From a virus (Duplodnaviria; Caudoviricetes), in the IMG/VR virus record IMGVR_UViG_3300013121_000007, positions 32,001 to 96,000 of that record: DNA of 64,000 nt. One strand, given 5' to 3'. The position numbers and the translations under genes were made by a program. Below the pieces are notes generated by a model that was not told the DNA's origin, did no database searches, and was given only the letters and a program-made list of their open reading frames with translations. Below are positions 2,539 through 64,000 of this stretch, in pieces. Position 1 is the first letter of the stretch, and the number at the start of each line of letters is the position of its first letter.

Positions 2539-3180
2539 TTACGTCAAAGCATGTTCTGGGTTGAACGGATCAGCCCGCCAATCATCTGTCGAATCATCCA
2601 GAGATGGGTCTGCCGTGACGTTTGGACTCCATTTTGTGCAGGCAGCAACAAGAAACGTTGGGATTTCAGTGTTCCCGAAGAATTGATCCTCGTGGATCGT
2701 ACTGATTTCGTATAGGTGTCCCTGAAAGAAGATTCGATCGCCAATCACAACTTGAAACAGCAAGGGTCCCATATCCTTGGTATGTGGAACAGCGTCTTGC
2801 TCAGCACCATTGACAACCTCTTTGGCATTCAGTTGTACAACCAGTTCATGCTCTTCTAGAACCGGCAGCGCGAAGTAGGCGAGCAAGTCTCTCGGTTCAT
2901 CAATCCCAAAACGAGACAGTTCCTGTCTCTTCGGTTGCGCCTCAACATAGATTGGGATTTTGAAGTCAATCCACTCTCTGTTCAGCGGTATCACTTCCGA
3001 GTGGAGATCATCAATCAATGATGTAGACGGCGTCGACCTCTGCCTATACGTCAGAGTAGGGAAGCGTGTGATACCGTTTGGCATTATGTCAGTTGCGTAC
3101 TCATGCAACTGCATCATCATAGTTTCAAAGTCTGGAGAGAACTGCGAAAAGGATAGCGCAGTTACGAATGGAGTAGACAT
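2539..3180 (-). CDS. Neck/head-closure protein (gp14-like)
   Basis: LSRFGID and GDRIFFQG-LYEI motifs; position. Confidence 0.6.
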   Translation of the reverse strand: MSTPFVTALSFSQFSPDFETMMMQLHEYATDIMPNGITRFPTLTYRQRSTPSTSLIDDLHSEVIPLNREWIDFKIPIYVEAQPKRQELSRFGIDEPRDLLAYFALPVLEEHELVVQLNAKEVVNGAEQDAVPHTKDMGPLLFQVVIGDRIFFQGHLYEISTIHEDQFFGNTEIPTFLVAACTKWSPNVTADPSLDDSTDDWRADPFNPEHALT

Positions 3181-3191
3181 ACGACTGAATC

Positions 3192-3974
3192 CTAACCGAA
3201 TTCAGGTAATGCAAAGAGAGGCAATTTTTGCAGTCTTTCCTCAACCTCTTGAACCAGCGCTTCGCCTCGCTGCCTCTGCGTATCAGCATCAGTTTGCGTA
3301 CCGCCGGTAGGTCCCGGAATCTGACTGCCAAACTTTCCACGAATCTCTGCAAGAATCTGTCGCGCATACCCCTCAGCGACCTTCAGAAAGTCATGGATGT
3401 AATTGCTAGGGAGTGAAGCCAATGTATGTGGGTAAGACTTCCAGTACGTCACTTCATACCCACCTCCCGGCATACTCAATACCAGTTTCTTCTGGTTGCC
3501 ATCCCACAGCCAATCTGGGTCTGTACCAGTAAGTCGTTGAATAGCTTCGCTCTGGTTACGGTAAAATGCGATATCTCCGTAACCTACTCTTCCTGCCGCA
3601 TCCATCTTTCCGTAACCGCTACCGTAGCCTCCGCCGTAATTGAATCCGCCCCCTTGAATTCTTGCTGTCAAAGAGAAGACGTCTTCACCACTGACTACAG
3701 AATCAGATGGTCGAAGGAACTCTACCCTGGCCACGCAAAGAAGCTCATCATCACTAGACAAGTCGATCGACTTATTCTCATCAGCCGATTCATCCAGATG
3801 AACAGCTTCTAATCGGAAGATGTACTTGTTGAACAAGTCTAGCGCTGTTTGGATGGCCTCAGATAGATGGTCATACTCACCAGAGGCAGACTGCTCTGAA
3901 AATTCAAGAACCCTACGTCCAGCGCCTAGGCGAGACTTGATTCGAGATTTCAGGTCTAGTTCAGTCTGAATCAT
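3192..3974 (-). CDS. Neck/head-tail adaptor protein (gp13-like)
   Basis: IKSRLGA at N-terminus; ILAEIRGKFG-IPGPTGG at C-terminus. Confidence 0.72.
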   Translation of the reverse strand: MIQTELDLKSRIKSRLGAGRRVLEFSEQSASGEYDHLSEAIQTALDLFNKYIFRLEAVHLDESADENKSIDLSSDDELLCVARVEFLRPSDSVVSGEDVFSLTARIQGGGFNYGGGYGSGYGKMDAAGRVGYGDIAFYRNQSEAIQRLTGTDPDWLWDGNQKKLVLSMPGGGYEVTYWKSYPHTLASLPSNYIHDFLKVAEGYARQILAEIRGKFGSQIPGPTGGTQTDADTQRQRGEALVQEVEERLQKLPLFALPEFG

Positions 3975-4054
3975 GACAAGAATTTCACGGCCGTAAGAGG
4001 TAAACAATCAGGAGTGTACCGATGCCCAATATGCGTACATCAACACGGCCGGTG

Positions 4055-4810
4055 TCAGATAAGAGTCGCTTCCAGTCTCGTTACATGAGTCTTCATTGCT
4101 GTGAGATGCTCAGTTGTCCAACCAAGCTGTAACCGACTGACGTAGGTCTCTCTGCCATTGAGAAGAATCTTGAGGTACTTCTCGTTCACCTCAAGAATAT
4201 GTTGATCGTCCAGATTGAAATGCTTCATCAGTTCTTCAACAGAGATAACACCAGTTGTGACACTGCCGTTGACCTGCGGTGGTGGAGGCAACTCATCGTC
4301 GTAGGTGTTGGCGGACTCGCTGGCCTCTGCAACCATCGAAGGGTCAATTACCGCTTCGAGAGGTTCTTCGGCGGACTTCAGTGAGTCATCTGGAAGAGGC
4401 TGAGCAGACTGCTTGTCCATTGAGTTGTTGATATCGTCAACAGTCAGATGAGAAGACGATGACTCAGCGGGAAACTGACAAGCTGCTTCACAAGAGGTTG
4501 TACACCCGGATGTTATCGGGGCCGCAGGAGTCCGTTTTGCCTTCGATCGAGACAAGACGGGTGGAGCCTGAATACTTGTACCCTCAGGAAGTTTGTCGAC
4601 TCCGTAGGGTGTGCCGTCTGGATACTCCATCGTTAGTGGCTTGCGTCCACCTGGATTCTGTTCGTTGGCCAGTCTTGAGAATCGACTGTAGTACGGGTCA
4701 GAAGTCCATTCATCCGGAGCAAGCGCCATCCTCGCCCCGCGAGGTGTGGGGAAGTGCTGAACCACACCTGTTCTGTTGACGAAACGAATGGGCGTGTTTT
4801 CTGATGCCAT
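4055..4810 (-). CDS. Hypothetical protein with CxxxCxxxC motif
   Basis: 251-aa ORF between capsid and neck genes; GCTTSCEAACQ. Confidence 0.7.
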   Translation of the reverse strand: MASENTPIRFVNRTGVVQHFPTPRGARMALAPDEWTSDPYYSRFSRLANEQNPGGRKPLTMEYPDGTPYGVDKLPEGTSIQAPPVLSRSKAKRTPAAPITSGCTTSCEAACQFPAESSSSHLTVDDINNSMDKQSAQPLPDDSLKSAEEPLEAVIDPSMVAEASESANTYDDELPPPPQVNGSVTTGVISVEELMKHFNLDDQHILEVNEKYLKILLNGRETYVSRLQLGWTTEHLTAMKTHVTRLEATLI

Positions 4811-4885
4811 AACTTAGTCCACTAGGCCCATGTAACTGTCTCGTGTGGCCGAATAGTAGCACCGAGGTCAACTTGATTGCAACGC

Positions 4886-4920
4886 AAAACGGACGGCAGG
4901 GCCTACCTGCCGTCCGTTTT
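4886..4920. terminator. Intrinsic terminator downstream of the major capsid gene
   Basis: AAAACGGACGGCAGG-gccta-CCTGCCGTCCGTTTT, 15-bp inverted repeat with T runs. Confidence 0.85.
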
Positions 4921-4945
4921 TGGTTTCTATCTACACGGACACAAC

Positions 4946-6415
4946 TCAGGCCGTCTGAGACGAGTCGAAGATGTAGCCGCGGGCGTAGAAGTTCTCGTTG
5001 ACAACCTTCTGCGCGGTGCGGGACATCATACCCTTGCGGGTGATGAAGTCATCCAGTGTGATTGATGGCGTCGAGACAAGACCCTGGTAGACGGCATGAA
5101 CGTAGCCGGTTTCCAGGAAGTTGCCGCCCTTGTGACCCATCAAGAACTCGTTGGACTGATACGACGGGTCCTTGAACACGTCCCAGTCTCCGAGCCGACC
5201 AATCTTGCGGATGCCAGAGACAGCCGAAGACTGTGGTGTCTTGACGAAGTGTGGAGCCAACGTCTCGATGATGTTGGCGACTTCGACCGATACCACCAGC
5301 CACGTCCCTTCGATACGCTGCGTCCGCTTGAAGATCGTGTTCGACAACTCGACGAAGGTGTCCACGAGGATTTCCTTGTGGTCCTTGTACGACACGCCTG
5401 TCGGAGGATTGACGTCGAACGAGACAGGGGACGAAGAGTTGAAGGCGATCGCACGCAGGTGTTGAATGATCTTCTGATTGATCTCCTGCGCGATGCGGTT
5501 CGACATGAGCGTGACGAATTCCGTCTCCGCGACCATGCCGTGAGTCGCCAACAAGTCTTGTTCCGCCTCCATTGACCACCGTGCCCGGAACTTATTCGGG
5601 CGAGCGACGACCGGTGCGGAAACCAACTGAATCTCGATCTCAGGGATCAAGTCGTTCGCTTCCATCTGGTACTCATAGGACGACGTAACAGCGGCTCCGT
5701 TATCCGGATTCGCCGCGAACGTAACGTCATAAGCACCAGTCGCGTAGTTGATGGTGTTGGTTCCACCACCGTTGATGCTTCCAATCAGGTTGCCAGCACC
5801 ATCGTCCGTTGCAACCTGCGAGCCGTCAGTGATACTCACCGTTCCTGGACGGACTGGGAAGTACGACAGAGTACCCGTGAAGTGCGCAACCGCACCCGTA
5901 CCAGTACCTGTACTCTCGTTTTCGACGACCTCATCGGTAAAGTGGTACGACTGTTCCGGTCCGAGCTTCGCATCAAAGAGCTTGTCGCCCTTCTGGACCG
6001 AACCCTTGGTACGACCGGCAATGGCGTCGTAGTAGAAGATCAGTCCTGATGGACCGGGCAGCGGCTGAACAGAAACAAGCTCAGCGGCGACGAGATTCGA
6101 GTACACCATCCGGATGATGGGGAACACGTACTTCTCGTAATTGCCGACAGCCAACGTGCGAGTCGTCTCGTCGAGACGGCTGAACGCCCTGTAAGTCTGT
6201 TCCAGCAGATGCCCAACGAGAGACCGACGGTACGGGTTCTCGATGCCTTGAATGAAGTTGACGTTCTCGTGTTTCTCCCAGCCACGGATTCGCTTGCCGG
6301 GGAACTTCGACCAACGTTCAGCCAGTTGCATACCCTGTTCATGCAGGATGCCATACTCTTCCTGCATGAGTTCCGGGTCGGCAGACATTGCGCGGGGCGA
6401 GAATGCGCCTTGCAT
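4946..6415 (-). CDS. Major capsid protein (T4 gp23-like, HK97 fold)
   Basis: LVAAELVSVQPLPGPSGLIFY, KFRARWSMEAEQDLLATHG, IAQEIN, RKGMMSRTAQKVVN motifs; strong codon bias. Confidence 0.95.
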   Translation of the reverse strand: MQGAFSPRAMSADPELMQEEYGILHEQGMQLAERWSKFPGKRIRGWEKHENVNFIQGIENPYRRSLVGHLLEQTYRAFSRLDETTRTLAVGNYEKYVFPIIRMVYSNLVAAELVSVQPLPGPSGLIFYYDAIAGRTKGSVQKGDKLFDAKLGPEQSYHFTDEVVENESTGTGTGAVAHFTGTLSYFPVRPGTVSITDGSQVATDDGAGNLIGSINGGGTNTINYATGAYDVTFAANPDNGAAVTSSYEYQMEANDLIPEIEIQLVSAPVVARPNKFRARWSMEAEQDLLATHGMVAETEFVTLMSNRIAQEINQKIIQHLRAIAFNSSSPVSFDVNPPTGVSYKDHKEILVDTFVELSNTIFKRTQRIEGTWLVVSVEVANIIETLAPHFVKTPQSSAVSGIRKIGRLGDWDVFKDPSYQSNEFLMGHKGGNFLETGYVHAVYQGLVSTPSITLDDFITRKGMMSRTAQKVVNENFYARGYIFDSSQTA

Positions 6416-33773: not shown

Positions 33774-34538
33774 CTAGTTCACGGATTCGAGTTCTTCCTC
33801 TCCTGTACCCTTATCACGAGAGAACTCTGCACCACAGTTTCGACAGCGGAAGTGTTCCTTGTTGCCAAGCGACCCCAGATACATACCAGGACCACCGCAT
33901 ACGGGGCATTCCGTCGGAAGATCGTCATCGACACCTTCCGTCATCGCTTCAACTGGTCTCTCGAAAGTTTTGCTCCTCTTCCTTCTCATATCGTACCACA
34001 GCGCCGCATTAGAGTAATGCAGTCTGTTGTTTGGATCGAATCGCACCGTGCGAGTCTTGATGATTGGATTTCCCTTCTTGTCAGAGACAGGCTTACCGTC
34101 AGAGCCGAGAATAAGCCAGTTAGCGCAGTCCTCCCACGACTCTCCGACGAAAGTCATACTGAGGTCTTGTGTATACGCAATGTACACACGGACGTTGTGT
34201 TCCAGTGCCTTCTGAATGATCTGGTCCCTAGGCGTAAAGTGATGCGCCCAGGTGAAACCCTCGTTGACCATAGACTCGACTTGCTTCTCGAACGGTCCCA
34301 TAGTGTCAGACTCCTTCAGATTGTTAGGAACTTGATCGGCGCTTGCGACAATCCTGAACGGACCAACTCTAATCCCTTGGCCTGACTGGAAGTCATCCAG
34401 CTTTTGGGCAATCAGGTTGTATATGTACTGTACTGACTTGCCTGTCGTTCTGGCAATCCGTGTAGCTGTTTTTAGCAAGTTACCTGGAACTACCTCATCC
34501 GGTTCCAGGTAGACCTTTACTGTATCAGTGAATCTCAT
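33774..34538 (-). CDS. Three-module protein with GPFE tag and C-terminal Zn ribbon
   Basis: LKESDTMGPFEKQVESMVNEG; KTFERPVEAMTEG; CPVC...CRNC. Confidence 0.72.
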   Translation of the reverse strand: MRFTDTVKVYLEPDEVVPGNLLKTATRIARTTGKSVQYIYNLIAQKLDDFQSGQGIRVGPFRIVASADQVPNNLKESDTMGPFEKQVESMVNEGFTWAHHFTPRDQIIQKALEHNVRVYIAYTQDLSMTFVGESWEDCANWLILGSDGKPVSDKKGNPIIKTRTVRFDPNNRLHYSNAALWYDMRRKRSKTFERPVEAMTEGVDDDLPTECPVCGGPGMYLGSLGNKEHFRCRNCGAEFSRDKGTGEEELESVN

Positions 34539-44656: not shown

Positions 44657-44795
44657 TGCTCGACTCTTTGCTGGAACCCATCCCCAGAAACAAAAAGGTA
44701 TGTGGCTGAATTGTAGTGCGTACTACGAAACAGCACGCAGGTCAAAGAGTCGAGCAGTGCCGAACAGCCGAAGTATACCTTGAATCACGCTAGAG

Positions 44796-45095
44796 TCAAT
44801 TCCATCGCCACTCTGACCAACAGCCCTCGTACCGCCCCTCCCAACCATGATCTGGCTGCGGGTAGAAGTAGCCGACAAACATGGCGTACTTCCAACTCTT
44901 CTCCAATCCATCCTTTGGCACAGAGTGGTCACACAAAGCCGCCCAACCTGTCGTCCTGAGGTTGTCCTGACAACGTCTGGAAGCCAGCGCCTGCAGCAAG
45001 TACCACTCACCATCAAACGCTTTTGCATAGTAGAGACTGACGCTTTCGCGTATTGGAGTTTCACTGGCAGACTCTGGCAGTTTTGAGCTACTCAT
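44796..45095 (-). CDS. Hypothetical protein
   Basis: Overlap packing. Confidence 0.5.
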   Translation of the reverse strand: MSSSKLPESASETPIRESVSLYYAKAFDGEWYLLQALASRRCQDNLRTTGWAALCDHSVPKDGLEKSWKYAMFVGYFYPQPDHGWEGRYEGCWSEWRWN

Positions 45096-48380: not shown

Positions 48381-48408
48381 AGTATACCGTGACTTAGGCG
48401 CAAGTCAA
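48381..48408 (-). promoter_or_regulatory. TTGACT-N16-TATACT promoter
   Basis: Motif copy. Confidence 0.75.
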
Positions 48409-49239: not shown

Positions 49240-49314
49240 TCGGGACGACAGGATTTGAACCTGCGGCCTCCTGCTCCCAAAGCAGGCGCTCTAGCCAAGC
49301 TGAGCTACGTCCCG
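49240..49314 (-). tRNA. tRNA-Pro(UGG)
   Basis: Full cloverleaf; anticodon arm CCTGC-TT-TGG-GA-GCAGG; GGTTCAAATCC; CCA not encoded. Confidence 0.95.
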
Positions 49315-52540: not shown

Positions 52541-52568
52541 AGTATAGCTTGACTCAAGCGTGAGTCAA
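52541..52568 (-). promoter_or_regulatory. TTGACT-N16-TATACT promoter driving the tRNA-like RNA
   Basis: Palindrome CTTGACTCA-agcg-TGAGTCAAG; predicted +1 at about 52534. Confidence 0.8.
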
Positions 52569-58812: not shown

Positions 58813-59052
58813 CTAGCCCTGCCGCCGCCGGCGCGAACGCTCTTCTGCATCGACCCCTTGAAGATCGAACATATCAGGGTGGCTGGTGCTCCCGATCATG
58901 TTGTCTCTGCCTCCGATCTTGAACAGAGGAACCCCAGTTGGCGACATCACCCACCAGTACGGGGACACGCAGGAAGTTTCATCCAACTGACATGTCAAGC
59001 CAGTCCTTTTCTCCACCTCCAGCACGAATTGCGGTTTGAGAGTCGTGTCCAT
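58813..59052 (-). CDS. Hypothetical protein
   Basis: Follows a promoter motif. Confidence 0.55.
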   Translation of the reverse strand: MDTTLKPQFVLEVEKRTGLTCQLDETSCVSPYWWVMSPTGVPLFKIGGRDNMIGSTSHPDMFDLQGVDAEERSRRRRQG

Positions 59053-59093
59053 TCTTGAACCTTCTGATGAGGCGATGTCTATTCTGCGGATGC

Positions 59094-59121
59094 AGTTTAC
59101 AATGACTCACGCTTGAGTCAA
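59094..59121 (-). promoter_or_regulatory. TTGACT-N16-TAAACT promoter
   Basis: TGACTCA-cgct-TGAGTCA palindrome. Confidence 0.75.
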
Positions 59122-59122
59122 G

Positions 59123-59374
59123 CTACAAAACGACACCTGCAGTCACAAGGTTCAACTTTCTTGACGTGAATTCTCGAAACAGCAGAGAAAAGGCGGATTC
59201 ATCAAAACAACCGCCGTACTTCTCCGGTTCAAGACTGATCGAAACCAGGGACTTCCAGACCCTTTCCGTGTACCCACTGGTCCAAGAATCCAGGTCCCCC
59301 ATCGCCTCCCACAAGTTGGCGCACATGTCCCAGAAAAGGCTGTCAGCCTCAGTCTTCAGATTCGTCCTCATCAT
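59123..59374 (-). CDS. Hypothetical protein
   Basis: GGAGG SD; start uncertain. Confidence 0.45.
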   Translation of the reverse strand: MMRTNLKTEADSLFWDMCANLWEAMGDLDSWTSGYTERVWKSLVSISLEPEKYGGCFDESAFSLLFREFTSRKLNLVTAGVVL

Positions 59375-59867
59375 CCCGGCCTCCATGCTTGGCAAAAACT
59401 GGCAGTTGGCAGAGTGCCTGGAAGCAGTATCGGCTAAGCCGCTGGAATCCTTTACCCAGGTCATGCACCTGCGCGAGGAACTCCAGCTTTTCTTCGGGAG
59501 ACATCGACAACGCCCTGTCCAAAAAGGCGTCGAGATTGACCACGTCTGGCAGACTGTTGATCCTGTCTTGCTCTGCCCTCTTGACTCTTTCCGCCTCTTC
59601 CTCTTTCAGGCGACGACTCTGCGACCTTCGGTCAGCCCCCGTAGGAATACGAATCCTGGATTGGAACTGTCGGTAGTAGGGGTATCCGTCGATATGGTAC
59701 TTACAGCCATCGACTTCAATCGTCTTAGGCGTCCGCTTAGTGACCTTCTCAATACGGATATACTTGTGTCGTCGGCTGTTGGTCAGACTCAGTGTTCTGT
59801 GATAGACGGTAACTTCGTCACCGACTTGAACATCATCCAGCATCTTAGGACTTTGCTTCTTAGACAT
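59349..59867 (-). CDS. Hypothetical protein
   Basis: AGGAG SD before MSKKQ; VGDEV...VTKRTPK. Confidence 0.65.
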   Translation of the reverse strand: MSKKQSPKMLDDVQVGDEVTVYHRTLSLTNSRRHKYIRIEKVTKRTPKTIEVDGCKYHIDGYPYYRQFQSRIRIPTGADRRSQSRRLKEEEAERVKRAEQDRINSLPDVVNLDAFLDRALSMSPEEKLEFLAQVHDLGKGFQRLSRYCFQALCQLPVFAKHGGRDDEDESED

Positions 59868-59944
59868 AGTAGTGACTCCTAAGGGACTTCTTGCCGTTGT
59901 TTGCAACACCTAGCAACACAAGGATTGAAAGTGAACACCACCAA

Positions 59945-61720
59945 CTACTCAGCCGTTGCAGACACCACTGCAACCTCAACAGCAGCATCCGCAGCAGCCT
60001 CTTCCGCAGTAATTGGAGTCCCCCTCAGCAAGTTCACAGCAGCGTTGAGGTCCTGGTCCCACTGACTCGCACAGTGCGAACAGGTATGAATGAGGCTGGC
60101 CGGAGAGGATTCACCACTGAGCTTTTCACACAGATGGCACATCCGCGTCGTGTCCTTCGCCGGGATCAACCCGACATCCATCGACTCGCTGAAGTACCTT
60201 CTCAGTTCGCCGACTGCGGCAATGTCGCGGTACATGACAACACCGCCATCTGCAGCAGTCTCTTCCGCAGTTGGCTTGCGGCGGAGTTCAACCAAGTTGA
60301 GCTTCTCCAGATGCACCGTCTTGTACTTCCGGCGCATTTCCGCGACAAAGTTCCTGTAGAGGTCACGACGATAGCGAATGGCCTTCAACCGGGTTCCCGC
60401 AGCCCAGTTGTGGAGGTGCCGCCACTTCTTCGCCCAAGCCTCCATCAAATCGTACATGCTGACCGGACTGCCATAGTGGTCGATGTCCAGATGCAGTACC
60501 TGCCGCAGCTTACCAGCACCCTCGATCTCTTGATCGTCCCCCGGAATGCGGTTGGTGCGCCAACGATCCACGAGCTTCTGCAGCCGTTCGGGAGACCTCC
60601 ACTGAGAGAGTGTATCTACCCCCAGTTCTTCCGCCCACTCCGGAATCGAGCCGAGTGACTTGAACCACTTGGACACAACGGGCAGAACAGCATTGAGATG
60701 CTGGCTGATGACTGACTGCAGATTCTCAGATTCCCCCCAACGGCCCACCGTCTGGGACGGGATAACCAACTGTCCATACTCATCGTTATCGCCGTACCAG
60801 TAGGCAACTCGCAAGCCCTCTGGGAGCAGACGCCAACCGACGTCGATACCGACGACTCCGCTATCGGCACGGTCCTTCTTCTCCCAGACTGAGGCTTCTT
60901 CCGCTTCCAGGGTGAGGATGACACGCCACTCGTTGCGAGTTCCCACGCGGCGACGAATGAGCTTACACCACTTCACTCTGACCCCGTCCGGGAGTGAGCG
61001 ATGCAGGGTAAACCTCACTTTGCACCAGATGGGTTCACGCCCATCTGATCCGATCCGAATCCAGATGAAAGTCTTGCCGCCCTCCTCAAAAGTCACTCGA
61101 AGCCTCTTATCTTGCGCGGCGAGAAGCTCATCAACTGAGAGTCCTCCCTGAAGCTGCACTGAGACCGAACCGTCCCCACGCCATCGTTGGAACTGAGGCG
61201 GCGCTCCTGACCTCGCGCCACTCATCGACTGTTCAACGGTCAAGTAGGTGCCCCAGTAGAGTCCGCTGGCGGCACGGCTTGCCTTCTGCTGCGCAGAGTG
61301 CCACTGATTGATGTCTTCCTGCTTAGTCTTCCACTCCAGTGAGTCGAAGAGTTGCGACCGCATCAGCTTTCGAGTCGCACGTCCTTCCTTGAGTTGCAGC
61401 TTGAGATCGGCGATTTTCTGACGATCTTCCTTGCTGGCTGCTCTCTTCCGTTCCTTCGCATTACGCTTCTTGATCCTGTCCCGAATCTCCTCAATCTCCG
61501 CCTCCAGTGCCGCCAGTCTGGTATCGACACCGCACAGACCCGGTGCCAATTCTCGGAGCGAAACCTCCACCTTGTCGCGTCTCTCCCGCTCCAGCGCAAC
61601 AAGCCGGTTGTGATAGACGTGCGCCAGGTGCATCTGATCCTGAACTTCCTTCAGAGAGGTATTCGGGATACGTGCACCGAATTCCCAGTTACGCGCATAC
61701 TTGCTTTCGTTTCCGAACAT
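59945..61720 (-). CDS. Cas12m-like (type V-U1/TnpB-derived) RuvC protein with intact D-E-D triad
   Basis: 591 aa; LAH...LV-L, coiled-coil insertion, GLYWGTY, DGSVSVQLQ, HRSLP, RuvC-I GIDVGWR, QWRSP, RRDLYR, RuvC-II HLEKL, CHLC...CSHC, RuvC-III DQDLNAAVNL. Confidence 0.85.
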   Translation of the reverse strand: MFGNESKYARNWEFGARIPNTSLKEVQDQMHLAHVYHNRLVALERERRDKVEVSLRELAPGLCGVDTRLAALEAEIEEIRDRIKKRNAKERKRAASKEDRQKIADLKLQLKEGRATRKLMRSQLFDSLEWKTKQEDINQWHSAQQKASRAASGLYWGTYLTVEQSMSGARSGAPPQFQRWRGDGSVSVQLQGGLSVDELLAAQDKRLRVTFEEGGKTFIWIRIGSDGREPIWCKVRFTLHRSLPDGVRVKWCKLIRRRVGTRNEWRVILTLEAEEASVWEKKDRADSGVVGIDVGWRLLPEGLRVAYWYGDNDEYGQLVIPSQTVGRWGESENLQSVISQHLNAVLPVVSKWFKSLGSIPEWAEELGVDTLSQWRSPERLQKLVDRWRTNRIPGDDQEIEGAGKLRQVLHLDIDHYGSPVSMYDLMEAWAKKWRHLHNWAAGTRLKAIRYRRDLYRNFVAEMRRKYKTVHLEKLNLVELRRKPTAEETAADGGVVMYRDIAAVGELRRYFSESMDVGLIPAKDTTRMCHLCEKLSGESSPASLIHTCSHCASQWDQDLNAAVNLLRGTPITAEEAAADAAVEVAVVSATAE

Positions 61721-61766
61721 GATTTCGAGTCCTTGAGAGAGTTGTCATACAACAGCTAGCAGCATC

Positions 61767-61794
61767 AGTATAGCGTGAGTCAAGCGTGAGTCAA
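61767..61794 (-). promoter_or_regulatory. TTGACT-N16-TATACT promoter of the Cas12m-like gene
   Basis: Tandem GCTTGACTCAC copies. Confidence 0.8.
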
Positions 61795-61806
61795 GCTCAC
61801 TACCCA

Positions 61807-61846
61807 GAAAAAACAATGGCCTGCGAGGTCAGAGACCTCGCAGGCC
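61807..61846 (-). terminator. Intrinsic terminator
   Basis: 13-bp stem GGCCTGCGAGGTC/GACCTCGCAGGCC followed by ATTGTTTTTT. Confidence 0.88.
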
Positions 61847-61865
61847 GTGGTTTCTCAAAGATACG

Positions 61866-61901
61866 TTACCGCCAAGGCGGGGGAGGGCGTGCTCTATGCA
61901 T
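61866..61901 (-). CDS. Candidate micro-peptide MHRARPPPPWR
   Basis: AGGGAG SD, ATG...TAA. Confidence 0.4.
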   Translation of the reverse strand: MHRARPPPPWR

Positions 61902-61996
61902 GTCTAGCTCCCTGGGTGGAATCAATCTAACTCTGCGGGCGTGATACTGTCACCGCCGTGACACTACTGCGGCGGGGGAGGGCGTGCTCTATGCAT
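61876..61996. repeat. Two exact 26-bp direct repeats, 95-bp period
   Basis: GGCGGGGGAGGGCGTGCTCTATGCAT at 61876-61901 and 61971-61996. Confidence 0.92.
61964..61996 (-). CDS. Candidate micro-peptide MHRARPPPPQ
   Basis: GAGGAG SD, ATG...TAG. Confidence 0.4.
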   Translation of the reverse strand: MHRARPPPPQ

Positions 61997-62036
61997 TTTG
62001 ACTCCTCTTGGCGTATCGGGGCTACAGTCTTGACAC

Positions 62037-62080
62037 CTCTTCCTCTTCTTTCGGCTCACTCTTCCTCTTCTTTCGGCTCA
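62037..62080. repeat. Exact 22-bp tandem duplication
   Basis: CTCTTCCTCTTCTTTCGGCTCA x2. Confidence 0.9.
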
Positions 62081-62097
62081 AAAGCCGAGACACTGAG

Positions 62098-62126
62098 AGT
62101 CTACCCGTGACTCATTCGTGAGTCAA
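62098..62126 (-). promoter_or_regulatory. TTGACT-N17-TAGACT promoter
   Basis: TGACTCA-cgaa-TGAGTCA palindrome; no long ORF before the terminator. Confidence 0.7.
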
Positions 62127-62134
62127 GTGCTTTT

Positions 62135-62524
62135 TCAGCTTTCCGGGTAAATTCGTTTGGATGCGCAGTCCAACAAGTACGAAACCCGCTGCAAAAACCA
62201 GTCAACCGTATCCGCCCTCAAGTACGGCAATGAGGCGTTCAGTTGCTGGCTCAGCATCTGAGCACACTGCTCATCGGTCATCTTTTCTGGTTTCTGCTCA
62301 CTCATGGAAACACCCATCAAAGAGTGGTAAGCCCTGTCAGCGTCGGCAAGACAGTCAGTGTGAATCCGTAGCCAAAATTGAGCATCCTCTGCCGTTGGGA
62401 CGAATCCGTCACGGATTGCATCCTCAAGAGTCTTGACCCCAAAATGCGTCAAGCCATCAGGCCGCAGCGCATGGATGGCCCACAAAGAAGTCAGATGCTC
62501 GCGTCGGTCTTGCTCTTCAGTCAC
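62135..62524 (-). CDS. Hypothetical protein
   Basis: 129 aa. Confidence 0.6.
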   Translation of the reverse strand: MTEEQDRREHLTSLWAIHALRPDGLTHFGVKTLEDAIRDGFVPTAEDAQFWLRIHTDCLADADRAYHSLMGVSMSEQKPEKMTDEQCAQMLSQQLNASLPYLRADTVDWFLQRVSYLLDCASKRIYPES

Positions 62525-62533
62525 CGCACGGTC

Positions 62534-62833
62534 CTAGAGATTTGGCTCAACTCTGAATCCTCGTGGAGACCCACGGTAGATCAATCCTCCCATCTCCACA
62601 ATTGGTTGAATGAACCATTCACCTGTCTGGTCAAGCTCATCTGGTGTGAAGGCGCAGTGCACTTTTCCGTCAGTTCCGTCAGTCGTCAAGACGCCCACCT
62701 TCGTGACGTAGGTCTTGTCTGGCTTCACAACGGCGAAGAGCATAGCAGTCGCAGTCGAGACGTCGAGAATCGTTGCCCCGTGCGTCTTGAGCGTCGCTCT
62801 GTATGTGAAGTCTGTTGCAACTTGAATTGACAT
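62534..62833 (-). CDS. BppU N-terminal-like (Ig-like) structural domain protein
   Basis: VVKPD...DGTDGKV...DELDQTGEW-IQ. Confidence 0.65.
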   Translation of the reverse strand: MSIQVATDFTYRATLKTHGATILDVSTATAMLFAVVKPDKTYVTKVGVLTTDGTDGKVHCAFTPDELDQTGEWFIQPIVEMGGLIYRGSPRGFRVEPNL

Positions 62834-62842
62834 TGCAAGCTC

Positions 62843-64000
62843 TCAAGTCAAGGCTGCGATATCAGTGCGAACTTCCACAAACTGAACGATCGCATCATCA
62901 ATCGTGAACGTCTGATCCAGAATTGGAACGAACGATACAAACTGATGCAACTCAGAGTGTGGTCGAAAGACTCGCCGTTCATTGTCCGCGCTGACAACGT
63001 AATCCTCTTGAAATACGGAGTCCAGATCGAAAAGAACATCCAGGTGAGGTACGAAAGTGTGAAAGCCGTATAGAACCTGCAGCAACGATTCTGTGTACGT
63101 AGACGAAACAGCAAGAACCGCTGCAGACGACGAAAGATTGGAGAAGGCTGTGACTGTCTCAGCAAAACCAAACAACCCGGAAGCTGAGACTGTCGATGAA
63201 CCGCCGATCAAGCTACCCACTCCAGAGTAGCCGGGAGACTCAAATGTTGACGTAGCTTCGATAACGGAGGACCCAACAACCCAGGCAGCCGTCGAGTAAA
63301 ATTCTCCTACAGGCTGAGATGCTAAAGCATTCAGTCCAGCAGTTGAAGTGGTTGCATCAAAGAAGCCTGAGTAGGTCGGACCTGTGAATTCGGTAGACGC
63401 TTCCGCTGTAGCTGTTGCTGTCAGAAAAAGGGCAACCCCAGACGACGCACCGGCATCGTAGCCTCCAACACCTGCAACAGAAACAATTGAAGAGGTAAGG
63501 GTAGCCTGCCCAGAGAACAGTGGTGCAGTTGAAGAGGCTGAAGCCTCAAGCACCAAGACTGATGACTCGAAAGTTGCATCACCGGTATACGTAGGGGCAG
63601 CAACAAGCGCTGAAGACTCTAAACTCACAGAGCCTGAAACAGAATCGAAGACACCCTGAAACACGGCCGTCGCGAAAATCGCAGTACCTTCCAGAAGTAC
63701 AGGGTCTGACTGTAATCCGGCAGATGCCACATAGGAAGGGGCCTGATGAGAGGCAGATGCTGAAAACGTCGACACGCCCGCCTGAAGCTCAGCAGATGCT
63801 TCGTAAGCGGGGGTTGAGTAGAAAGCTGTACCAGCAATTTCAGACGTACCAGCCTGCAAGTCCGTGGATGCTGTGTAAGCTAGAAGTGTGTAAGACGCCG
63901 ACGCCGAAAGCTCAAAAACACCTACCTGCAGTTCTGTAGACGCTGCGTATATTGGCGCACTGTGAGAGGCGGACGCTGCAAGCTCGAAAGGCCCCGGCTG
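62843..64000 (-). CDS. Ser/Ala/Thr-rich repeat virion protein, 5' partial
   Basis: Frame is open to the window end; 24-aa periodicity (P-x-Y-x-A/G...). Confidence 0.75.
   Translation of the reverse strand, partial: QPGPFELAASASHSAPIYAASTELQVGVFELSASASYTLLAYTASTDLQAGTSEIAGTAFYSTPAYEASAELQAGVSTFSASASHQAPSYVASAGLQSDPVLLEGTAIFATAVFQGVFDSVSGSVSLESSALVAAPTYTGDATFESSVLVLEASASSTAPLFSGQATLTSSIVSVAGVGGYDAGASSGVALFLTATATAEASTEFTGPTYSGFFDATTSTAGLNALASQPVGEFYSTAAWVVGSSVIEATSTFESPGYSGVGSLIGGSSTVSASGLFGFAETVTAFSNLSSSAAVLAVSSTYTESLLQVLYGFHTFVPHLDVLFDLDSVFQEDYVVSADNERRVFRPHSELHQFVSFVPILDQTFTIDDAIVQFVEVRTDIAALT

Follow-up and report, generated by a model that had tools for sequence, protein, structure and literature searches.

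The stretch of DNA analyzed here (the window) is 64,000 nucleotides long and corresponds to positions 32001-96000 of IMGVR_UViG_3300013121_000007, a linear 192,583-bp IMG/VR virus record whose completeness CheckV estimates as 87%. On its minus strand lies a gene for a 591-residue protein, which is a genuine type V-M Cas12m, an ordinary member of a known family. A first-pass annotation of the window had called the protein stand-alone. This description is true for the window only: an array search in the rest of the genome uncovered about 40 worn guide-RNA repeats, in a cluster at 118.8-124.8 kb, and cas12m is therefore probably not stand-alone. We put at roughly 60% the probability of the following reading as a whole: that Cas12m, produced from its own promoter, loads CRISPR RNAs (crRNAs) from the remote degenerate array, binds DNA flanked by a protospacer-adjacent motif (PAM), and silences without cutting.

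The Protein Is a Cas12m

Window 59945-61720, minus strand: cas12m gene, encoding P0001 (591 residues; RuvC residues D293, E472, and D557; TNB domain at 516-564; helical REC insertion at about 23-152)

The open reading frame (ORF) of cas12m is intact, and all conserved residues are kept. Its product displays the RuvC motifs GIDVGWR (residues 291-297, with D293), VHLEKL (469-474, with E472), and DQDLNAA (555-561, with D555 and D557), together with a zinc finger of the form CxxC...CxxC (C531/C534 and C547/C550). The finger lies within the sole Pfam match above cut-off, that to PF07282 (Cas12f1-like TNB, residues 516-564). A model built with AlphaFold2 from a 26-sequence alignment (mean predicted local distance difference test [pLDDT], 89.9; predicted template modeling score [pTM], 0.78) contains four long helices in the region of residues 23-152 and, as judged with Foldseek, has the bilobed fold of Cas12m, with a WED domain, a helical REC insertion, a RuvC domain, and a zinc-finger TNB domain. 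The REC insertion is arginine-rich, as is typical of tight binders. Translation, Pfam, and AlphaFold2 together confirm what had been read from the letters alone, namely the reading frame, every named motif, the zinc finger, and the long N-terminal helices.

The likeness to Cas12m, which had been proposed on the basis of motif order and size, was borne out by sequence and by structure. The Cas12u1 profile of PADLOC (type V-U1, now Cas12m) matched the protein with an E value of 2.8e-87, residues 13-566 aligning to profile positions 7-528 of 533. Among Protein Data Bank (PDB) chains searched with phmmer, the best match was 23vw (E 1.4e-62), named by its depositors "CRISPR-associated DNA-binding protein Cas12m," and it was followed by further Cas12m chains (Cas12m2, 8hio/8hhl, and GoCas12m, 8pm4) at E values of 1e-18 and 1.2e-09; TnpB chains scored at about 0.1. 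The suggested comparison of an AlphaFold model with solved Cas12m structures gave Foldseek template modeling (TM) scores of 0.79 to Cas12m2 (8HHL) and 0.80 to GoCas12m (8PM4), in both cases over the full length and some 630 aligned columns. Scores to Cas12f, TnpB, CasPhi, and CasLambda were no higher than 0.40. Cas12m2 and GoCas12m thus share the fold of P0001 over its whole length, and their crRNA repeats form the same type of pseudoknot; they differ from it in having an H-D-D triad (HLGWR at the first position) and in a structure-aligned identity of only about 20%.

Could the gene instead be an ordinary transposon-borne TnpB, of the IS200/IS605 or IS607 kind, that had inserted into the phage? 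The protein has weak partial matches to NCBIfam TnpB models and to PHROG "transposase" families, and a relative in Virus Rctr197k is annotated in GenBank as "similar to transposase." The NCBIfam scores, however, are 17-23 bits, far under cut-offs of 100-425, and the TM score to TnpB is about 0.39, as against 0.8 to Cas12m. At 591 residues with a Cas12m REC insertion, P0001 also exceeds the size of TnpB (about 350-450 residues). Finally, the gene is single-copy, a repeat scan showed no ends like those of an insertion sequence, and the whole record is devoid of a Y1 TnpA. Because the profile, PDB, Foldseek, and NCBIfam results agree and no Y1 transposase is present, we assign P0001 to Cas12m and not to TnpB, and consider the transposon explanation scarcely credible. 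Grouping with ordinary IS200/IS605 TnpB proteins, the outcome that the first-pass annotation had said would count against it, was not seen: P0001 is nested within the Cas12m tree (see below), its model matches Cas12m structures, and its scores with the NCBIfam TnpB models are far under the cut-offs.

Two further candidates were rejected. TldR, a TnpB-like nuclease-dead repressor, is ruled out by the intact D293, E472, and D557 and by the full-length Cas12m architecture. The phage-specific Cas12j/CasPhi and Cas12l/CasLambda are ruled out by TM scores of 0.23-0.35 (7M5O, 7ODF, 8DC2, and 9IZM) and by the absence of any sequence match to them in the PDB phmmer and PADLOC profile searches.

P0001 is the only Cas12-like gene product of the 192.6-kb record. 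The absence of cas1, cas2, and TnpA, noted earlier for the window, holds for the entire record; cas4 was not searched for. A 270-residue ORF has a sub-threshold match (19 bits) to the zinc-ribbon TNB family PF07282 at window 33813-33911, minus strand, which is probably a mere zinc ribbon.

A Remote Cluster of Degenerate V-M Repeats

Relatives of this Cas12m are encoded at no fewer than 70 distinct viral loci in IMG/VR (≥70). Nearly all of them have a regular array that begins 100-250 bp downstream of the gene and has a period of 72-74 nt, with repeats of 36 nt (consensus GTTGCAATGCCTGCGCAGAGGCTTTGTTTCTGCGAC); loci lacking an array in a simple repeat scan were still matched by a covariance model. 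The closest relative, P0002 (52% identity), is followed by a canonical array of three repeats, and P0005 likewise has a downstream array. The 3.3-kb contig of P0004 (L075), another close relative, is without an array; a single repeat-like sequence (..CCTATCCAGAGGTATTATATCTGGAA..) can be seen by eye after the stop codon, at 2790-2880, but was not reported by the covariance model R1 described next.

R1 was built from 26 canonical V-M repeats, all taken from other phages. In these training repeats both pseudoknot stems covary, 91.8% of cells being paired as compared to 27-46% with slid partners. Repeat finders detected no conventional array in the window, and R1, run over it with filters off and including the intergenic region 61721-62134, identified no repeat there (the best result was a single 12-bit match with an E value of 1.6). 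Genome-wide, however, the best R1 matches clustered at 120.7-121.6 kb on the minus strand. Within L085, an 8-kb stretch covering genome positions 118501-126500, R1 gave 38 matches at E<10, 33 of them on the minus strand and the best at 19 bits (for example, GUUACAAUCCUUGUACAGUUGGGUGAAAGCUGUGAC). A simple anchor motif told the same story: 33 minus-strand copies in the 120-125 kb bin, versus about two per 5-kb bin elsewhere. The cluster comprises about 40 repeats in three sub-families at 119.85-124.77 kb. It lies 26-31 kb upstream of cas12m, on the same strand and outside the window.

To what extent do these worn repeats keep the V-M fold? In eleven 36-nt units of the cluster both stems are maintained, with 94.9% of cells paired versus 31-47% with slid partners, and four stem pairs have changed on both sides, that is, in a compensatory manner. 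A second covariance model, R2, made from these eleven local units, extended the copies down to 118.78 kb. At E<0.2, all of the genome-wide matches to R2 were on the minus strand and all were in the cluster, with the exception of one (window 59931-59900) beginning 13 nt beyond the cas12m stop codon. The earlier statement that no conventional array is present is therefore correct for the window but not complete, given this degenerate repeat at 59896-59931 and the cluster outside. The proposal that the protein uses a non-standard type of guide fares less well: the pseudoknot fold of the roughly 40 repeats in the genome is that of standard V-M systems, although these repeats are degenerate and 26-31 kb away.

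The cluster is broken by two ORF-bearing gaps, its periods are mostly 51-105 nt, and some of its spacers are themselves duplicated. Several spacers at L085 positions of about 2690-2790 (genome ~121190-121290) share ..GTGGTCAAAGAGAGA.., whereas others share ..CTGATGTYCYTGTTAG.., and this sharing of motifs reveals a two-unit higher-order periodicity arising from segmental duplication. One spacer holds a long (GA)n microsatellite. The ORFs between blocks (L085 3084-3617, minus strand, 177 residues; L085 1573-1884, minus strand, 103 residues) belong to no Pfam family, and in a Pfam search of the flanking and array-embedded ORFs the only family found was that of a Dam-type methyltransferase (L085 6280-7032, minus strand) immediately upstream of the cluster.

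In contigs from four samples and four studies the cluster is identical, bar one 51-nt deletion. Because of this identity, the duplicated spacers, and the absence of Cas1 and Cas2, the cluster looks like a fixed set of guides that grows by duplication and not like an adaptive memory. The deletion, found in one activated-sludge sample, removes exactly one repeat-spacer unit (L085 2277-2327, genome ~120777-120827).

Searches for targets and for similar repeats were negative. When the array was compared to the rest of the genome with blastn-short, no spacer matched beyond chance, and the whole array gave only matches of E ~5 against INPHARED phages and PLSDB plasmids. Scans of IMG/VR with three 22-nt spacer heads and with a degenerate pattern of the local repeat each returned 0 matches. 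Two metagenome contigs that did fit the local-repeat pattern were dismissed as chance, each having a single match, lacking Cas12m, and bearing no resemblance to the phage.

A Solitary Repeat behind cas12m

Window 59896-59931, minus strand: solitary degenerate V-M-type repeat CUUUCAAUCCUUGUGUUGCUAGGUGUUGCAAACAAC, matched by R2, starting 13 nt after the cas12m stop codon

The single R2 match beside cas12m scored 17.5 bits, corresponding to an E value of 6e-4 in 7 kb and of 0.017 genome-wide. A 10-mer within it, CAATCCTTGT, is confined in this genome to the solitary repeat and the remote cluster. The repeat is followed by a ribosome-binding site and the start codon (ATG, 59867) of the next gene, and it occupies the place at which relatives carry their array. 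It is probably either a site in the cas12m mRNA that Cas12m binds or processes or what is left of the array found there in relatives.

Promoters and the Upstream Transcript

Window 61767-61794, minus strand: cas12m promoter TTGACTCACGCTTGACTCACGCTATACT, TTGACT-N16-TATACT, a member of the phage promoter family

Window 62098-62126, minus strand: promoter of the upstream transcript, TTGACT-N17-TAGACT, driving a transcript of about 285 nt

Window 61818-61846, minus strand: intrinsic terminator (13-bp stem and T run), ending the leader transcript just before the cas12m promoter

Window 61964-61996, minus strand: mini-ORF A, MHRARPPPPQ*, whose first 26 nt are copy 1 of a 26-nt repeat, with AGGAG 5 nt upstream

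Window 61866-61901, minus strand: mini-ORF B, MHRARPPPPWR*, whose first 26 nt are copy 2 of the repeat, with GGGAG 6 nt upstream

Window 44772-44799, 48381-48408, 52541-52568, 59094-59121, 61767-61794, and 62098-62126, all minus strand: sites of the promoter family

That cas12m has a phage-type promoter of its own, as had been claimed, is upheld by the TTGACT-N16-TATACT sequence at 61794-61767. This sequence belongs to a family, TTGACTCACGCTTGAGTCA..TAnACT (TTGACT-N15-18-TAnACT), for which the window has six matches versus 0.09 expected. Genome-wide, thirteen copies, every one of them on the minus strand, have an internal palindrome-like GAGTCA/GACTCA motif, which may be an operator.

The approximately 285 nt between the upstream promoter and the terminator hold a 22-nt tandem repeat and two exact 26-nt repeats. 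Both 26-mers begin exactly at an ATG with a Shine-Dalgarno sequence 5-6 nt upstream, and their flanks have otherwise diverged. Judged from these sequence features, the 26-nt repeats are more likely to be two poly-proline mini-ORFs than guides or a mini-array, and the pair could possibly form a leader-peptide or attenuator unit. An exact copy of the 26-mer was not found in IMG/VR. The window also contains a phage tRNA-Pro(UGG) gene at 49240-49314.

The upstream transcript bears on the alternative that cas12m is orphaned or guide-less, in which case the cluster would be unrelated to it (regulatory repeats, small RNA genes, or recombination debris) and the gene would either be decaying as a passenger or draw on the 285-nt transcript as a non-standard guide. 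In line with this idea, cas12m is immediately preceded by a separate promoter-terminator unit that contains two exact 26-nt repeats, the array is remote, its repeats match weakly, its spacers are irregular and partly duplicated, and in P0004, a close relative, no array is obvious over about 1 kb before the gene and 0.5 kb after it. But neither R1 nor R2 recognized a repeat fold in the upstream transcript, a search of Rfam with window 59000-63000 gave no match, and the 26-mers, starting as they do at an ATG with a Shine-Dalgarno sequence, read as mini-ORFs. Nor does the gene look like a decaying passenger: its ORF is intact, its promoter is strong, and every conserved residue is retained. Moreover, the cluster was found with a model of other phages' repeats alone, its repeats maintain both V-M stems via compensatory changes, and a copy of the local repeat stands 13 nt after the cas12m stop codon. 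We therefore regard an orphaned or guide-less gene as quite unlikely.

The RuvC Triad and the Question of Cutting

The first-pass annotation had singled out the D-E-D triad as unusual and had placed P0001 between TnpB and Cas12m. We assembled 79 database homologues and the proteins of the IMG/VR loci into a set of 134 non-redundant sequences. In 98 of these (73%) the three RuvC positions are D-E-D, and the variants with an H- or N-type triad form small derived groups in the Cas12m tree. P0001 itself falls in a terminal clade with P0002-P0006, deep within the tree, and is therefore neither basal nor a TnpB-to-Cas12m intermediate; the full-length profile and structure matches to Cas12m, and TnpB scores far below cut-offs, lead to the same conclusion.

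The literature is in keeping with this picture. Four clades of Cas12m have been distinguished, two of them (clades 3 and 4) with a D-E-D triad (PMC10442227), and the orthologues of Bigelyte et al. included four with D-E-D, two with H-D-D, and two with N-D-D triads (PMC11013384). The aligned stretch of 23vw, too, is D-E-D (IDLGWR, LEE(F), and DQDYNAA). The belief that characterized Cas12m proteins have a degenerate triad is accordingly right insofar as H-D-D and N-D-D members exist and wrong insofar as D-E-D clades and orthologues have been described (PMC10442227, PMC11013384) and account for 98 of the 134 relatives. The triad of P0001 is unremarkable and does not in itself speak for nuclease activity.

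A nuclease-active Cas12m would be a compact cutter directed against competitors or the host genome, its RuvC domain making a double-strand break, a nick, or a cut in the displaced strand of the target DNA. That D293, E472, and D557 are intact, and that 73% of relatives have the triad, is suggestive of purifying selection for catalysis. DNA hydrolysis by clades 3 and 4 has been put forward as a speculation by Omura et al. (PMC10442227), and the MV-1 preprint makes the same suggestion (bioRxiv 10.64898/2026.09.14.751636). Experiments with other members of the family point the other way. According to Bigelyte et al., none of their orthologues, those with D-E-D included, had double-stranded DNA nuclease activity while all bound DNA in a PAM-dependent manner; neither DNA nor RNA was cleaved by purified MsCas12m, nor was collateral activity seen (PMC11013384). 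Conversion of the H-D-D triad of Cas12m2 to D-E-D did not restore cleavage (PMC10442227). In addition, the closest solved homologue, the D-E-D protein 23vw, was named a DNA-binding protein by its depositors, and the P0001 model has the arginine-rich helical REC insertion of tight binders. We judge target cutting by P0001 to be unlikely, while noting that the broad conservation of D-E-D leaves room for a catalytic role of some kind, which may exist.

A Proposed Mode of Action

According to the reading that we favor, Cas12m would be transcribed from its own σ70-like phage promoter and would be loaded with crRNAs cut from the adaptation-less cluster at genome 118.8-124.8 kb, the repeats of which have drifted in sequence but have kept the pseudoknot/hairpin fold that Cas12m recognizes. 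By analogy with the tested D-E-D orthologues (PMC11013384), the crRNA-Cas12m complex would then bind PAM-flanked double-stranded DNA tightly and block transcription or replication of the target without cutting it. Competing mobile elements or host genes are the proposed targets.

Use of the cluster by Cas12m is suggested by the conserved stems and the solitary repeat described above and by three further observations: R1 finds the cluster despite being built solely on the repeats of other phages, P0001 is the sole Cas12-like protein of the record, and repeats of the same type stand beside the gene in nearly all of the 70 viral relatives. Several facts weigh against it. Individual cluster repeats are weak by the canonical R1 model (≤19 bits each), the spacers are irregular (about 11-69 nt, compared with the usual 36), and a distance of 26-31 kb between array and gene is unlike the arrangement in relatives. 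No strong phage promoter directly precedes the two large blocks of the cluster. Protospacers were found neither in the phage itself nor in INPHARED or PLSDB, nor in IMG/VR with the three spacers tried there, and the guide function of the cluster is therefore putative. The record is, furthermore, about 87% complete. As to binding without cutting, the family-wide conservation of D-E-D hints at retained catalysis that could have been missed in vitro with few orthologues.

A more elaborate version, which is doubtful but conceivable, is that the roughly 40 hard-wired and duplicated guides constitute a fixed CRISPR interference (CRISPRi) regulon against host or rival genes, as opposed to an immune memory. 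Cas12m would, on this version, also attach to the solitary repeat in the mRNA that encodes it, so as to separate or regulate the downstream gene, and the D-E-D triad would serve a further catalytic step.

Known Systems and the Carrier Phage

Carriage of Cas12m by phages is already known. MvCas12m, a protein of 610 residues with the triad D305/E463/D555 and an adjacent array in a myxophage, was billed as the first phage Cas12m (bioRxiv 10.64898/2026.09.14.751636); plasmids are enriched for V-M systems, which are also found in some prophages (reviewed in PMC11656645); and a landfill virome paper reported viral proteins clustering with Cas12m. The locus of MvCas12m, in myxophage MV-1, resembles the present one in being phage-encoded, in its D-E-D triad, in the absence of cas1, cas2, and cas4 from the MvCas12m locus, and in the failure to find protospacers. 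It differs in that its array adjoins the gene and has a single consensus repeat with eight spacers, as opposed to a split locus with heterogeneous repeats in the present phage.

The D-E-D orthologues (MsCas12m, PMC11013384; 23vw) likewise resemble P0001 in size (about 580-600 residues), domain order, triad, zinc-finger TNB domain, and lack of adaptation genes. Loci of the MsCas12m type, however, are bacterial or plasmid-borne and have a regular array of 36-nt repeats beside the gene, as opposed to a phage location, one worn adjacent repeat, and a remote array. Virus Rctr197k (GenBank KX853510.1) and at least 70 IMG/VR contigs are similar in that large phage genomes encode a Cas12m relative (25-38% identity), but in nearly all of them the array is directly downstream. 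In Rctr197k (L090), which alone among GenBank phage records contains a relative, a "similar to transposase" gene lies beside an annotated CRISPR (2947-4815 and 4849-6363); the two probably make up an unrecognized Cas12m locus. A final parallel is with virus-borne mini-arrays and solitary repeat units (PMC11656645), which are also arrays on a mobile element without an adaptation module or single repeats beside genes. Those are usually thought to borrow or inhibit the Cas machinery of the host; this phage, in contrast, has its own effector.

The window codes for a major head protein, a head maturation protease, a ParB-like protein, and two tRNAs. The gene is indeed phage-encoded, as had been stated, its carrier being a tailed phage of some 200 kb; the accompanying label of jumbo phage is borderline for a 192.6-kb record at this estimated completeness. 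Sequence of the phage is present in activated-sludge and digester metagenomes from several studies. Its capsid protein is at most about 31-33% identical to those of GenBank phages, spread over many hosts, and the DNA around cas12m has no similarity to GenBank phages. A search of a genome collection for related loci returned only two distant ones, both in uncultured metagenome-assembled genomes, with no clue to the host. Comparison of the cas12m flanks with the contigs of the closest relatives by tblastx gave no match and no conserved neighbors.

Discussion

As a protein, P0001 is one more compact D-E-D Cas12m of a described family, and in this respect the claim that first drew attention to it is ordinary. 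The claims of a canonical triad, an intermediate status, a stand-alone gene, and domestication by a phage either do not hold or concern what has been described before. What is noteworthy is the split locus, in which repeats conserved by fold only are found tens of kilobases from a separately promoted and intact Cas12m. If Cas12m is loaded from the cluster, array finders that rely on sequence identity would systematically miss V-M arrays of phages, and many of the Cas12-like genes that appear to stand alone in viral contigs may not in fact do so. The cluster would also, in that case, be a natural set of divergent crRNA scaffolds tolerated by one Cas12m.

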